IMG/VR virus record: IMGVR_UViG_2600254977_000009
DNA: 8,984 nt
Reading direction: 5' to 3' (one strand)
Origin: a virus
Taxonomy: Duplodnaviria > Heunggongvirae > Uroviricota > Caudoviricetes
Position numbers and translations under genes: made by a program. Positions 807 through 5,538 of this stretch are shown piece after piece. Below the pieces are notes generated by a model. The model had not been told where the DNA came from, did not search any database, and worked only from the letters and a program-made list of their open reading frames with translations. The first letter of the stretch is position 1. The number at the start of each line of letters is the position of its first letter.

Positions 807-863
807 AGCAATTTAGATAATCGTGCAGACTACCCCCCCTCATATCACATGGAAGGTACTACA

Positions 864-1274
864 ATGGCTCAGATTGCCATTTTTAAACAAATATTCGATA
901 AAGTGCGAAATAATTTAAACTATCACTGGTTTTATTCTGAACTAAAACGTCACAATGTCTCACATTACATTTACTATTTAGCCACAGAGAATATTCATCT
1001 TGTTCTTGAAAACGATAATACGGTTTTAATAAAAGGACAGGGTAAGGTTGTAAATGTAAGATTTTCAAAAAATAAATGCCTTATAGAAGCCACCTTAAAA
1101 GGATTCAAATCAGGAGAGTTATCATTTTACGAATACAGGAAAAATCTTGCTACAGCAGGGGTTTTCAGATGGATTACAAATATCCACGAAAACAAAAGGT
1201 ATTACTATACCTTTGATAATTCATTACTCTTTACTGAGAACATTCAGAACACTACACAAATATTTCCGCACTAA
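864..1274 (+). CDS. ydfO: DUF1398 family protein (YdfO/YbcV-like), AT-rich moron gene
   Basis: Frame of ORF 849..1274. I prefer the second in-frame ATG at 864 because GGAAGG lies 7 nt upstream, whereas the ATG at 849 has no SD. The protein ([18 protein letters not shown]...[24 protein letters not shown]) resembles YdfO/YbcV-type prophage proteins as I recall them. Gene order Nu1 - YnfO-like - YdfO-like mirrors Qin. The DNA is visibly AT-rich compared with the flanks. Confidence 0.65.
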
Positions 1275-1581: not shown

Positions 1582-2046
1582 TTATCTGAGGCATTGCTCT
1601 CGAATGTATAGCTGTGCCCCTTCAAGTTGTTTTTGCATTATTATCAGTCGCGCTCTGAGGGTGAAATAATCCCGTTCAGCGGTGTCTGCCAGTCGGGGGG
1701 AGGCTGCATTATCCACGCCGGAGGCGGTGGTGGCTTCACGCACTGACTGACAGACTGCTTTGATGTGCAACCGACGACGACCAGCGGCAACATCATCACG
1801 CAGAGCATCATTTTCAGCTTTCGCATCAGCTAACTCCTTCGTGTATTTTGCATCGAGCGCAGCAACATCACGCTGACGCATCTGCATGTCAGTAATTGCC
1901 GCGTTCGCCAGCTTCAGTTCTCTGACATTTTTGTCGCGCTGGGCTTTGTAGGTAATGGCGTTATCACGGTAATGATTCAGCCCCAGACTAAGCGCACCAC
2001 AGGCCACCAGCAGGGCAATGATGACCACGCACAGTACGCGGTTCAT
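1582..2046 (-). CDS. Rz: Spanin inner-membrane subunit Rz (i-spanin)
   Basis: 154-aa ORF with an N-terminal TM segment and coiled-coil periplasmic region. Long stretches ([17 protein letters not shown]...[86 protein letters not shown]) are essentially identical to lambda Rz as I remember it. Confidence 0.95.
1644..1826 (-). CDS. Rz1: Spanin outer-membrane lipoprotein Rz1 (o-spanin), embedded in Rz in the +1 frame
   Basis: 60-aa ORF entirely inside Rz. Lipobox LVVVGC followed by a proline-rich region ([59 protein letters not shown]) matches lambda Rz1. Confidence 0.9.
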
Positions 2047-2344: not shown

Positions 2345-2909
2345 TTATCTGTCGATACCCCAGCACGCCAGCGCGCTCTCCTGGTCACGACGGGATACCT
2401 GACCGTAGCAGTTGTTTGAACGAATACGGCAGTCTCTGCCACCGTCCTTAATCCACCAGCGAATCGCCTCACACGCTCCCCTGCGATCACCTGCATTAAT
2501 TCGTTTATAAAACGTCGACGGGAAACACTTACCGGGACCAATGTTGTACGGACAGAATGACGCGATCCCCGCTTTCTGGGGTTCGCTCAATGGCACTTTG
2601 ATGTTTTTCTCCACCCATGCCAGCGCCTTATCACGCTCAATGGCGTTGACCTGGTCGCATTTTTCCTTCGACAGTTTCATACCGGGAAAAACGGGTTTTC
2701 CATCCACCATCGTGGCCCCCCGACAGATGGTCCAGTTGCCGGAACCATCGCGGTATGCCGTAGTGTGGTTACCCTCTTTTTCATCCAGAAACTGGTCAAG
2801 TATCNNNNNNNNNNNNNNNNNNNTGGTCAAGTATCTGAGGAGCTGATGCGCCTGCTCCAATCAGCGCCAGAACTGCAGCTGACAGGCCGTATTTGATTTT
2901 TGCGTTCAT
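2345..2909 (-). CDS. R: SAR endolysin (phage lysozyme, T4-lysozyme/GH24-like fold), reading frame interrupted by a 19-N assembly gap
   Basis: Minus-strand ATG at 2909..2907 gives MNAKIKYGLSAAVLALIGAGASAPQILDQ..., a Gly/Ala-rich weakly hydrophobic signal-anchor-release (SAR) N-terminus. After the N-run the ORF-track frame continues ILDQFLDEKEGNHTTAYRDGSGNWTICRGAT...CWGIDR, with an E...D...T spacing that looks like the catalytic triad of phage lysozymes. The two halves are in different frames only because of the artificial N-run. Confidence 0.85.
2805..2823. other. Assembly gap (19 N) flanked by a duplicated 12-13 nt sequence
   Basis: ctggtcaagtatc immediately precedes the N-run and tggtcaagtatc immediately follows it. 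This is the signature of overlapping contig ends joined by a scaffolding gap rather than missing biology. Confidence 0.9.
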
Positions 2910-3014
2910 GGATATTTATCAGGATTTATCGGTTTCTGAACCCTGGATATGTTTATCTGTCCCGGCCTGTTGAATCAGGCGGGGAAAAGGTAAAGACAAT
3001 CAAGAGGATTATTT

Positions 3015-3287
3015 ATGGACAATAGCACCATTTCTCTACAGGAGTTGCTCGACTGCATTTCCAGGCTTCGGGATGATGTAAATGCCCTCACTGTTGCATT
3101 TTCACATCTGGCCTTATCAATTCCCAGGGAGCAAATGCTGCCAACGCTGGCATCCATTCATTTTGAATCACGCAACCCCAAATGGTCCCAGGAACAACAA
3201 AATTCTTTCAAGTGGCTGGCGGCATTGCTGGAAGAAAATTATGCTGGCAAAACTACCATTTCGGCGGAGTCTTCAGGGAACCAGTAA
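3015..3287 (+). CDS. Hypothetical 90-aa protein on the opposite strand inside the lysis cassette
   Basis: ORF-track protein MDNSTISLQELLDCISRLRDDVNALTVAFSHLALSIPREQML... The ATG at 3015 is preceded by AAGAGGA at a 7-nt spacing (caatcaagaggattatttATG). Its 3' end overlaps the 3' end of the convergent YdfR-like ORF by 35 nt, so one of the two may be wrong or degraded. I do not recognise the protein. Confidence 0.4.
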   Translation: MDNSTISLQELLDCISRLRDDVNALTVAFSHLALSIPREQMLPTLASIHFESRNPKWSQEQQNSFKWLAALLEENYAGKTTISAESSGNQ

Positions 3288-3597
3288 TCCTTCCCGGTAG
3301 CTTTCCTTTGTAGGTTATCCATACATTCTGCGCCTCTAAAATTACGGGGCGCTTTTCCGGCGACTGCTCATCCCCTTCACATAACCCGGCAGCGACATCC
3401 AGGAAGACCTGTCTGATGCTCCTTCTGGCCGCTGCCTCATAAAACTCCAGCGCAGCACCTTCAACACGGTCCAGCGAGATGTCCAGGTCAAAAATTTCAC
3501 CGTCAAAGCGTTCTTTGTCCTGTAATGCTAAAGTTACCGTAACTTTATTCTCAAAATTGCGGATCCCTTTCACAATCAGTTCATAGTTTTGAGTCAT
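3253..3597 (-). CDS. ydfR: YdfR-like (DUF1327) protein between holin and endolysin
   Basis: The N-terminal ~70 aa (MTQNYELIVKGIRNFENKVTVTLALQDKERFDGEIFDLDISLDRVEGAALEFYEAAARRSIRQVFLDVA) resemble the Qin prophage protein YdfR as I recall it. Position between the holin and lysozyme is the same as ydfR between essQ and rrrQ. The C-terminal ~40 aa look unrelated and overlap the plus-strand ORF, so this may be frameshifted or truncated. Confidence 0.65.
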   Translation of the reverse strand: MTQNYELIVKGIRNFENKVTVTLALQDKERFDGEIFDLDISLDRVEGAALEFYEAAARRSIRQVFLDVAAGLCEGDEQSPEKRPVILEAQNVWITYKGKLPGRITGSLKTPPKW

Positions 3598-3601
3598 TGA
3601 A

Positions 3602-3817
3602 TTACTCTCCCCGTGCCGCCTTACGACGGTCCTCTCTGATTTTGAAATACAGGTTAGTCAGATATGTCAGCAGCCCAAACAGCAGACTCCCCAGCACGCC
3701 TATTGCCGCCCACTGAGACGGGGAAACCCTGTCCAGCAACTGCAGGAACCAGTAGCCCGTTCCCACCGCTGACGTGGTGTATGACACACCTGTTGTGATT
3801 TTTTCCATCTGGTCCAT
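3602..3817 (-). CDS. S: Class II holin, phage-21 S-type pinholin (71 aa) with a dual-start motif
   Basis: From ATG at 3817: [71 protein letters not shown]. It has two TM segments and a charged C-tail, and is near-identical to S21/EssD-type pinholins as I remember them. Met1 and Met4 (MDQM) fit the holin/antiholin dual-start pattern. GGGAGACGGGG lies upstream of the ATG. The longer ORF-track start at 3922 has no such support. Confidence 0.85.
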
Positions 3818-4535: not shown

Positions 4536-4544
4536 GCCCACAAG

Positions 4545-4776
4545 AAAACCCCTCCGGAGAGGGGCTAAAGCCGCGTATCTGTATCATCATGCACATGGTG
4601 CCGGGTGCCTCCCGGTGAGTTCAGCCCGGTGCCACTAAACCCGCGTCATTCTCGTTTTGATAATCAGAGATTATACCGTCACCAGTCGCCCCTCCGCTCA
4701 GGGGGATTCACCATGCGAAATTTTTTTAACAAATGCCCAGTCTGACAGGCAACTGTCAACTTACTGAATTGTGAGC
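4545..4776 (-). repeat. Copy A of a ~220-230 bp block-conserved element; on the minus strand it ends in an intrinsic terminator
   Basis: Shares identical or near-identical blocks with copy B: cccctccggagaggggct, catggtgccgggtgcctcccggtga, gcccctccgc(t/a)cagggggattcaccatgc, ttttaacaaa, gtcaac, ctgaattgtgag. The blocks are separated by divergent spacers of unequal length. Minus-strand 3' end: CCCCTC-tccg-GAGGGG then TTTTCTTG (plus 4541..4564). Confidence 0.7.
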
Positions 4777-4810: not shown

Positions 4811-4839
4811 GTAAAAAGGCCCACCGGAGCGGATGGGCC
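4811..4839 (-). terminator. Candidate intrinsic terminator between the two repeat copies
   Basis: Minus strand GGCCCA-tccgctccgg-TGGGCC followed by TTTTTACTG (plus strand gtaaaaaggcccaccggagcggatgggcc). Confidence 0.45.
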
Positions 4840-5030
4840 TGGAAGGATAGCGGTCATGTGATGCCGGTTTCCCGGTAACTCAGCACCGGTATCTGAGTCA
4901 ACGTTTTCTCTACTGGGTCATTTCCGATACGCCCTGCCTGCTGACAGGCTTTCATCACATCTGAAAATATAGCACCCTGACTGATACTGTAGTACCTAAG
5001 GTTCCAGAAACTGTGATGTATCCGGCACAG

Positions 5031-5245
5031 AAAAGCCCCTCCGGAGAGGGGCTGGAGAGTGGCGCTATGTGCCATTGCATGGTGCCGGGTGCCTCCCGGT
5101 GAATTCAGTACCAGCACCTGAATCCGCGATTATCCCATATACCTACTCGCTGATTGCCCCTCCGCACAGGGGGATTCACCATGCCAGTTTCTTTTAACAA
5201 ACTCCCCGCAAACCAGACAACAGTCAACCGCCTGAATTGTGAGAC
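5031..5245 (-). repeat. Copy B of the block-conserved element; on the minus strand it ends in an intrinsic terminator
   Basis: Same conserved blocks as copy A in the same order. Minus-strand 3' end: GCCCCTC-tccg-GAGGGGC then TTTTCTGTG (plus 5027..5052). Short ORFs that can be drawn through the two copies differ in frame and length, which argues against coding. Confidence 0.7.
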
Positions 5246-5288: not shown

Positions 5289-5365
5289 TGGCGCGTTGTA
5301 CTGGATTCGAACCAGTGACCGATTGCTTAGAAGGCAATTGCTCTGTCCGGCTGAGCTAACAACGC
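5289..5365 (-). tRNA. argO: tRNA-Arg (anticodon UCU), canonical cloverleaf
   Basis: Reverse complement GCGTTGT-TA-GCTC-AGCCGGACA-GAGC-A-ATTGC-CTTCTAA-GCAAT-CGGTC-ACTGG-TTCGAAT-CCAGT-ACAACGC-G-CCA. All four stems pair perfectly and the anticodon loop is CU-UCU-AA. Gene name is by analogy to the ileZ-argN-argO cluster of lambdoid/Stx prophages. Confidence 0.9.
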
Positions 5366-5378
5366 AGGATACAGATAA

Positions 5379-5455
5379 TGGACCGCCTTCGGGGACCCGA
5401 ACTCCGCGCAACCAGCTTCGAAGGCTGGCGCTCTTTCCTGATGAGCTAATGGCGG
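5379..5455 (-). tRNA. argN: tRNA-Arg (anticodon read as UCG), with non-canonical features
   Basis: Reverse complement CCGCCAT-TA-GCTC-ATCAGGAAA-GAGC-G-CCAGC-CTTCGAA-GCTGG-TTGCG-CGGAG-TTCGGGT-CCCCG-AAGGCGG-T-CCA. D and anticodon stems are perfect. The acceptor stem has one A:A mismatch, the T-stem one A:C mismatch, and the T-loop is TTCGGGT rather than TTCRANY. Position between the two good tRNAs supports a real or slightly degenerate tRNA. Confidence 0.6.
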
Positions 5456-5462
5456 TATGTGA

Positions 5463-5538
5463 TGGTGGCCCTTGCTGGATTTGAACCAGCGACCTGGCGA
5501 TTATGAGTCGCTCGCTCTCACCACTGAGCTAAAGGGCC
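5463..5538 (-). tRNA. ileZ: tRNA-Ile2 (anticodon CAU, lysidine type); a tRNA-Met is not excluded from sequence alone
   Basis: Reverse complement GGCCCTT-TA-GCTC-AGTGGTGA-GAGC-G-AGCGA-CTCATAA-TCGCC-AGGTC-GCTGG-TTCAAAT-CCAGC-AAGGGCC-A-CCA. Very similar to E. coli ileX/ileY (tRNA-Ile2) as I recall it. It is the first gene of the prophage ileZ-argN-argO arrangement. Confidence 0.85.

Follow-up and report, generated by a model that had tools for sequence, protein, structure and literature searches.

Phage morons are the closest described systems to the locus studied here; lambda bor and lom and the morons of HK97 and HK022 are reportedly examples. In lambda, bor adjoins the lysis genes on the opposite strand, and both Bor and Lom are envelope proteins with known phenotypes. 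Two other kinds of system offer partial parallels. T4-type phages are said to carry 'PeSL' units, in which a promoter plus stem-loop flanks small open reading frames (ORFs) and forms a mobile regulatory cassette. Anti-CRISPR and anti-defence loci place diverse small acidic proteins behind a conserved regulatory region. We analysed a stretch of 8,984 nucleotides from a virus of the Caudoviricetes (IMG/VR record IMGVR_UViG_2600254977_000009), hereafter the window, and in it a plus-strand ORF for a protein of 90 amino acids (aa). The window is the late region of a lambdoid prophage and is identical over its whole length (100%) to the chromosome of Escherichia coli ATCC 11775. The 90-aa ORF is already in RefSeq, where it is listed in ATCC 11775 as hypothetical protein WP_001351274.1, and UniProt and PHROGs both list its product as uncharacterised; morons, too, are an established concept. 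The less expected result is a shared structured leader and the candidate class of cassettes that goes with it.

We propose, with moderate confidence, that the 90-aa gene is an autonomous accessory cassette, or moron, that expresses a small protein-binding factor independently of lysis. Like other morons, it is an extra gene in only some of a set of otherwise collinear phages, lies between late genes, is supposed to have its own expression signals and is dispensable for the lytic cycle. Presence or absence among collinear genomes with sharp junctions, a mark of morons, is found for this cassette. Like lambda bor, it stands beside lysis genes on the opposite strand. Unlike Bor and Lom, its product is predicted to be soluble and helical; in addition, its promoter and terminator are candidates only, and its 3' end overlaps a neighbouring gene. 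The gene and the lysis genes around it, including a signal-arrest-release (SAR) lysozyme gene, are as follows.

3015–3287, plus strand: coding sequence of the 90-aa protein, from the ORF list (ATG at 3015, stop codon 3285–3287)
2375–2909, minus strand: SAR-type lysozyme gene rrrQ, divergent from the 90-aa ORF (Pfam Phage_lysozyme)
3253–3597, minus strand: DUF1327/YdfR-family gene, 114-aa form (Pfam and PHROG matches)
3602–3817, minus strand: S21-type class II holin gene
1582–2046, minus strand: Rz/Rz1 spanin genes

All of the flanking lysis genes are on the minus strand. A first-pass annotation, made from the sequence alone, had described a plus-strand ORF at 3015–3287 inside a minus-strand lysis cassette, overlapping the YdfR-like ORF by 35 nucleotides (nt). 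The coordinates and flanking strands agree with our own, and the overlap spans 3253–3287.

Patterns of substitution show that the 90-aa ORF is a genuine gene whose frame is under purifying selection. We compared five copies from differing contexts: the window, BL21(DE3), an ST131-type prophage, an island copy beside the adhesin gene iha and a plasmid copy. The ratio of nonsynonymous to synonymous substitution rates (dN/dS) is 0.14–0.41 in all ten pairwise comparisons, and in every pair substitutions are concentrated at codon position 3. The ORF is intact (90 or 89 aa) in 37 of 38 unique copies taken from IMG/VR and RefSeq prophages; across the 38, the share of variable sites is 20, 15 and 44% at codon positions 1, 2 and 3. 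The adjacent ydfR is less constrained (36, 27 and 54% at the three positions). Stop codons were checked directly, since one antisense frame has the same wobble positions as the plus frame. Of 47 diverse copies, 44 have an uninterrupted plus frame, among them all ten divergent copies, and every other frame contains stops in at least about half of the 47. The first-pass annotation had named an unconserved frame with a minus-strand pattern of substitution as the outcome that would speak against the gene; we find the frame conserved.

Comparison with collinear lysis cassettes indicates that the gene sits in an exchange slot between the endolysin and DUF1327/YdfR genes of lambdoid prophages. We assign it cassette status because presence, absence and replacement all occur at fixed junctions among collinear relatives. 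The module is about 300 bp long, running from about 2954/2966 to 3261, and is missing from those cassettes. In BLAST comparisons, similarity to three relatives (loci L003, L028 and L029) stops at 2953 and restarts at 3261–3262, and similarity to a fourth, the AR_0114 prophage (L002), stops at 2965 and restarts at 3258. The junctions thus fall at 2953–2965 on the left and 3258–3262 on the right. In AR_0114 only 63 bp separate ydfR from the lysozyme gene, and in a K-12-like Qin prophage (L027) ydfR overlaps rrrQ; both are without the 90-aa ORF. In other phages the same slot holds different ORFs.

Window 2954–3261: exchangeable module specific to this slot variant, with flanks common to other slot variants
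L003:1624–1884 and L029:1322–1582, plus strand: 86-aa ORF of phrog_2572 in the same slot
L028:1335–1649, plus strand: 104-aa ORF of phrog_1853 in the same slot, Stx2 phage 86

No relationship between the 90-aa protein and the phrog_2572 or phrog_1853 proteins could be detected. These two slot ORFs accompany DUF1327 genes that are long (211–268 aa) or pseudogenised.

The YdfR proteins of the slot variants agree closely as far as ...GSLKTPP (residue 111; ...GSLKMPP in L028) and then diverge. After this point the window protein ends in KW* and that of L002 in ESQP*, and the long forms (211 aa and 268 aa) continue, with TPP-TALRSE... in L029 and MPP-STLRSE... in L028. On this comparison the module junction truncates YdfR after residue 111 relative to the 211–268-aa forms, and the displaced portion amounts to the last 2–5 residues. 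The first-pass annotation had suggested that the last ~40 residues of YdfR no longer resemble its family, which holds only against the 103-aa K-12 YdfR, with which DNA similarity ends at window position 3392. The claim fails for the family as a whole: Pfam DUF1327 matches residues 1–112 of the window protein, phrog_406 matches residues 1–114 of 114, and the ~45 C-terminal residues that differ from K-12 are common to the long forms and the ORF-less L002. The accompanying suggestion that a small gene had inserted and displaced the 3' end of its neighbour survives in part. The module is absent or replaced in collinear cassettes and YdfR is cut at the junction; the displacement covers 2–5 residues in place of ~40, and insertion is indistinguishable from deletion or exchange. 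The pattern resembles an exchange of cassettes between flanks that are conserved. The final 26 nt of the 90-aa ORF fall in shared ydfR sequence, in agreement with the variable and predicted-disordered tail of the protein.

In other phages, small convergent minus-strand ORFs (62–85 aa) overlap the 3' end of the homologous plus-strand ORF, as ydfR does in the window, where the comparable region is 3253–3320.

L010:6261–6476, minus strand: small convergent ORF
L019:1630–1818, minus strand: small convergent ORF
L014:1068–1325, minus strand: small convergent ORF

Their N-termini are coiled-coil-like. Two of the three end much as YdfR does (...G(S/D)LK(T/K)PPxx), in GDLKKPPSY and GDILIPLES, with weak C-terminal similarity in pairwise searches (E 0.007–0.016).

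We identified the ORF region in 1131 of 5426 complete E. coli genomes (about 21%), including BL21(DE3), using a 341-nt query (2960–3300, the ORF with its immediate flanks) at a coverage of at least 80%. All 80 IMG/VR loci examined have this lysozyme/ydfR context. Apart from one partial fragment labelled Pseudomonas, everything returned by a word-indexed search came from Escherichia and Shigella. More distant relatives, at 25–34% identity, emerged from an exhaustive profile search, and all of them match phrog_2411 (P0062–P0075). These and two further paralogous lineages in E. coli, both by adhesin genes, occupy the following positions.

Klebsiella prophage, opposite strand: distant homologue after an Rz-like gene
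Atlantibacter prophage, opposite strand: distant homologue between tail genes M and L
Sodalis ligni chromosome: distant homologue
Between dinI and bssS: distant homologue
L004:4017–4289: island paralogue by iha
L005:4014–4283 and L021–L026:6001–6270: paralogue linked to an AIDA-type autotransporter

The island lineage lies by the adhesin/siderophore-receptor gene iha, from which it is divergent, in a pathogenicity island rich in insertion sequences. Its ORF is intact, with a core 74% identical to the window gene, and it is flanked by remnants of the lysozyme start and the ydfR 3' end (59–65% identity) that no longer code. The second lineage (65% identical) lies 308 bp downstream of an AIDA-type autotransporter linked to a TibC-type glycosyltransferase; it has chromosomal copies as well as copies on 73 E. 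coli plasmids, most of them conjugative. These copies indicate that the gene is kept intact outside phages and without lysis genes around it, which argues against a lysis-specific role. We regard the gene as autonomous from the lysis genes because intact copies occur on an island, on plasmids, in a tail operon and at chromosomal loci.

Candidate expression signals surround the ORF on the plus strand.

3002–3008, plus strand: Shine-Dalgarno (SD) sequence AAGAGGA, read from the sequence, with a six-base spacer to the ATG
2948–2953, plus strand: candidate -10 element TATGTT of the cassette promoter, aligned with TAnnnT of the leader family described below
2913–2953, plus strand: conserved upstream element ATATTTATCAGGAT...CCCTGGATATGTT (alignments A4 and A6)
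2965–2980, plus strand: hairpin GCCTG-TTGAAT-CAGGC in the predicted 5' untranslated region (minimum-free-energy fold)
3330–3358, plus strand: hairpin GCGCCTC-TAAAATTAC-GGGGCGC followed by TTTTCC, candidate terminator (minimum-free-energy fold)

The SD sequence had been seen in the first reading and is borne out here. Its GAGGA is conserved in the prophage copies and in the iha-island copy, and the plasmid copy L005 reads AAGATGA. Just upstream of the lysozyme start codon, positions 2911–2965 are the least variable part of the locus (11% variable sites in the 38 unique copies). The upstream element is common to slot variants with other ORFs and to the leaders of the Klebsiella and Atlantibacter prophages, and BLAST identity to L003, L028 and L029 over 2861–2953 is 88–94%. 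From the candidate -10, transcription is predicted to start near 2960–2962. The hexamer at this position reads CAGGTT in the ORF-less L002, which fits loss of function after loss of the cargo, in one lineage only. An alternative -10, GACAAT at 2995–3000, is TACAAT or TATAAT in the majority of relatives and is preceded by TTGAAT at a distance of 19 nt; we rated it less likely because transcription would then start inside the SD sequence.

By covariance-model alignment the 2965–2980 hairpin, directly after the predicted start, occupies the position of hairpin 2 of the leader family, with a shorter loop, and its stem differs from a GCCAG/CTGGC form by a compensatory T:A to A:T change. The 3330–3358 hairpin lies inside ydfR, 43 nt past the stop codon, and was passed over by the terminator scan because its loop is longer than 8 nt. 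The iha-island copy retains GCGCCTC...GAGGCGC-TTTG at the end of homology, though ydfR has decayed there. This hairpin is the best terminator candidate for the plus-strand transcript. Neither the window leader nor the 3' region folds significantly more stably than shuffled sequences do (z -1.84 and -0.91).

A shared leader emerged when the sequences upstream of the distant homologues were aligned with those upstream of the other slot ORFs. The leader set was gathered with an exact 15-mer. Chance would give roughly as many IMG/VR contigs as it matched (more than 120), yet of the 121 matches read in these loci, 94 have the entire ~130-nt context around them.

L010:5827–6026, L014:645–844, L018:5835–6034, L028:1180–1360 and IMG/VR L110–L229: leader copies
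Window 2911–3014: degenerate version of the leader

The elements follow one another in a fixed order: an opposite-strand terminator, a CTG-N9-CAG dyad, TAnnnT, hairpin 2, hairpin 3 (loop GGAUGGCUGAUUA), the SD sequence and the ATG. Most canonical copies have the opposite-strand intrinsic terminator; copies in the lysis slot, including that of the window, are without it. TAnnnT is near-invariant (T 94%, A 98%, T 94%) and stands 7–9 nt before the start of a (T)CAGCCC motif. All seven pairs of hairpin 2 vary on both sides, with 97% of cells paired, compared with 26–48% in slid controls for the whole leader structure. In its commonest form hairpin 2 includes a U.G pair, which would become A.C on the opposite strand; the structure therefore belongs to the plus-strand RNA. 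The stem of hairpin 3, constrained by sequence collection inside the 15-mer-selected set, also covaries in sequences outside it. Its loop GGCUGA is complementary to the 5' UCAGCC, both being invariant partly through the 15-mer selection, and the pairing is a possible pseudoknot, as a candidate only. A covariance model (R1) finds L018, L028, L014 and L029 (E 3e-15 to 2e-4), and the distant protein homologues in L010, L014 and L018 possess the full leader. The spacer of the CTG-N9-CAG dyad lacks one base by comparison with a LexA box (CTG-N10-CAG), and we do not class the leader as SOS-regulated.

The small ORFs that follow the leader encode 64 unique proteins, mostly of 64–99 aa, which fall into at least 19 BLAST clusters. 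The long neighbouring ORFs of these cassettes lie on the opposite strand in 235 of 248 cases (95%). Among the cargo families we found none of known function. A common superfamily was considered and is not established (best family-profile match 13 bits, E 2.4e-4 among 64 sequences). The canonical leader occurs in about 226 E. coli genomes, and in the 40 listed matches no feature is annotated beneath it. No Rfam family matches at the 90-aa ORF or at the canonical leader, and a literature search found no paper containing leader sequences. We tentatively suggest, at less than even confidence, that the 90-aa gene is one cargo of an undescribed class of exchangeable cassettes in enterobacterial temperate phages. 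In such a class many unrelated small ORFs, inserted antisense to late genes, would be driven by the shared ~130-nt unit, the leader RNA would act as a cis-regulator, and the cargo would serve in conflict or in modulation of the host. The leader RNA might set the time at which the small protein is made, for example only in lysogens or early in infection.

Like PeSL units, the leader is a conserved promoter-proximal sequence with a stem-loop before many unrelated small ORFs, and it could serve recombination or the shuffling of cargo. Unlike them, it occurs in temperate enterobacterial prophages, antisense to late genes, with two covarying hairpins and a possible pseudoknot, and most canonical copies begin with the opposite-strand terminator that lysis-slot copies lack. 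The arrangement also resembles anti-CRISPR and anti-defence loci in setting hypervariable small, often acidic proteins behind a conserved control region on mobile elements. It differs from anti-CRISPR loci in that we saw no linked aca-type helix-turn-helix regulator gene, no sequence similarity and no cargo of known anti-defence activity.

The 90-aa protein matches phrog_2411 over its full length (residues 1–90 against profile positions 1–90 of 90, E 5.5e-55), and its exact sequence is named Ybl58 in UniProt. The phrog_2411 family has no assigned function, Pfam or NCBIfam model or solved structure. The sequence is net acidic and is predicted to be soluble. An AlphaFold model built from an alignment that includes the distant relatives (mean predicted local distance difference test score, pLDDT, 82) has amphipathic helices at residues 8–34, 38–52 and 59–77 and a disordered tail at 81–90, the latter encoded partly by the antisense of the ydfR 3' end. 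The conserved core spans residues ~5–77. We suggest, guardedly, that the protein probably acts by binding another protein, which could come from the host or from a competing mobile element. Partner binding is proposed because of its small size and fold class and because it has no membrane segment, catalytic motif or DNA-binding fold. A part in lysis itself is unlikely.

Searches for relatives of known function returned little. The protein has no match in Pfam, and in NCBIfam only a sub-threshold match to Mip (E 0.08). Against PADLOC the 90-aa protein itself gives no match with an E of 1 or less, and a single weak match (E 0.005, 13.6 bits) comes from one distant homologue. The best hit in a sequence-profile search of the PDB has an E of 0.5, and a Foldseek search of BFVD gave nothing below E 0.5. 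Pfam and PHROG gave no match to a holin family. A small membrane protein of the holin, antiholin or type I toxin kind was rejected, there being no hydrophobic transmembrane segment and no long hydrophobic run. The IraP family (PF10796), considered for its size and helicity and for the iraM gene of a related prophage, was also rejected (hhalign probability 0.3%, no Pfam match). That iraM, an anti-adaptor gene, lies on the plus strand upstream of the holin region in AR_0114 (L002:2901–3236), a prophage without the 90-aa gene. A literature search on Ybl58, DUF1327, the accession numbers, the leader sequences and morons in lysis cassettes found nothing relevant.

We propose that the cassette would work as follows. 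Plus-strand transcription would begin at its own promoter, from the candidate -10 TATGTT (2948–2953), with a start near 2960 and the 2965–2980 hairpin at the 5' end of the transcript. The 90-aa protein would be translated from the AAGAGGA sequence, and transcription would end near the 3330–3358 hairpin. The lysogen would thus produce the protein without depending on the Q-dependent late (lysis) transcript, and after induction convergent late transcription would oppose the plus-strand transcript. Expression in the lysogen is predicted from conserved signals only.

Several observations weigh against the proposal of an autonomous, lysogen-expressed moron. A scan for the sigma-70 consensus found neither a promoter nor a terminator for the 90-aa ORF, and the -35 region of the candidate promoter is poor. 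With default filters, a covariance-model search of 105 kb did not match the window; with filters off, a 251-nt search gave it a weak 12.8 bits at 2945–3013. On these model results we treat the window leader as a degenerate relative of the canonical leader and not as a member. Its CAGCCC motif is degenerate (TCTGTCCC) and hairpin 3 is absent from the window, while TATGTT is present and aligned to TAnnnT. The lysis cassette of ATCC 11775 is probably defective, because RefSeq marks its rrrQ as 'frameshifted'. Fold and sequence searches give no functional clue, so that partner binding rests on absent features.

A function in conflict between mobile elements, with the protein excluding or countering other phages or host defence as one rapidly diversifying cargo of the shared leader, is the best of the alternatives, and we rate it as unlikely. 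The range of unrelated small-ORF clusters behind the canonical leader would suit it, as would the siting of the cassettes at variable hot spots, antisense to their neighbours in 95% of cases. The slot itself holds three unrelated ORF families in different phages, and the protein is small, acidic and carried also on plasmids and islands. Set against this, no PADLOC model matched, no cargo family has a known function, and selection within the family is purifying and not diversifying.

It is improbable that the position itself is functional and the protein a regulator specific to the lysis cassette, such as a cytoplasmic protein that restrains the pinholin, the SAR endolysin or YdfR. Such a role would account for the gene always lying between endolysin and ydfR in E. 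coli prophages and for the overlap of its 3' end with ydfR. It is harder to reconcile with the intact homologues away from lysis genes (in a tail operon, by adhesin genes, on plasmids and at chromosomal loci) and with the many functional lysis cassettes that do without the gene, including those of L002 and K-12 Qin. SAR endolysins act in the periplasm, whereas the 90-aa protein has no membrane segment.

Still less probable is that the protein is incidental and the plus-strand RNA the functional product, whether it regulates ydfR or the late transcript in antisense or works by transcriptional interference. Such a transcript would run towards the late operon, with complementarity to ydfR over at least 35 nt, and the sequence upstream of the gene is better conserved than its coding sequence. 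Selection on the protein is nevertheless shown by the bias among codon positions, by the low dN/dS and by a frame maintained at 25–34% protein identity in unrelated contexts, and the plasmid and island copies have no ydfR to regulate.

That the ORF arose by chance or shadows a minus-strand gene, as a 60-aa minus-strand ORF listed at 2975–3157 and a wobble-sharing minus frame open throughout in 24 of the 47 copies might suggest, is very improbable and effectively refuted by the dN/dS, codon-position and stop-codon results: that minus frame has 1–4 stops in every divergent homologue while the plus frame remains open, the family has a full-length PHROG profile, and at least 1000 contigs carry each of the four exact variants checked. 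The antisense frame across 3015–3287, which includes the ORF at 2975–3157, is a typical shadow ORF of a kind that could mislead gene callers and codon-position tests.

Other features of the window lie apart from the cassette.

2806–2824: run of 19 N that interrupts the lysozyme gene, with a 12-nt direct repeat (TGGTCAAGTATC) on both sides
4536–4745 and 5023–5213, minus strand: two full copies of the STnc100 small RNA (161 and 136 bits)
4811–4984, minus strand: one weak partial STnc100 copy (30 bits)
5292–5538, minus strand: three prophage tRNA genes (Arg, Arg and Ile in RefSeq)
573–806 and 849–1274, plus strand: YlcI/YnfO-family gene and DUF1398 gene, between the spanin and terminase genes

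The STnc100 copies lie upstream of the holin gene, and the tRNA trio is placed between a DNA methyltransferase gene and these copies. The YlcI/YnfO and DUF1398 genes form a further opposite-strand accessory block in the minus-strand late region. No canonical leader motif was found in the window.

The slot illustrates the exchange of accessory genes in lambdoid lysis cassettes, together with remodelling of the C-terminus of the neighbouring DUF1327 protein. The gene it holds in this variant is present in roughly one in five sequenced E. coli, including BL21(DE3), ST131 and O157 strains. Being under selection, yet with no known function, no relative in fold and no published account, it offers an inexpensive and clearly delimited target for functional work on small proteins. 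The leader, if confirmed, would be a new conserved cis-regulatory RNA and a handle for the systematic discovery of accessory small proteins in prophages.

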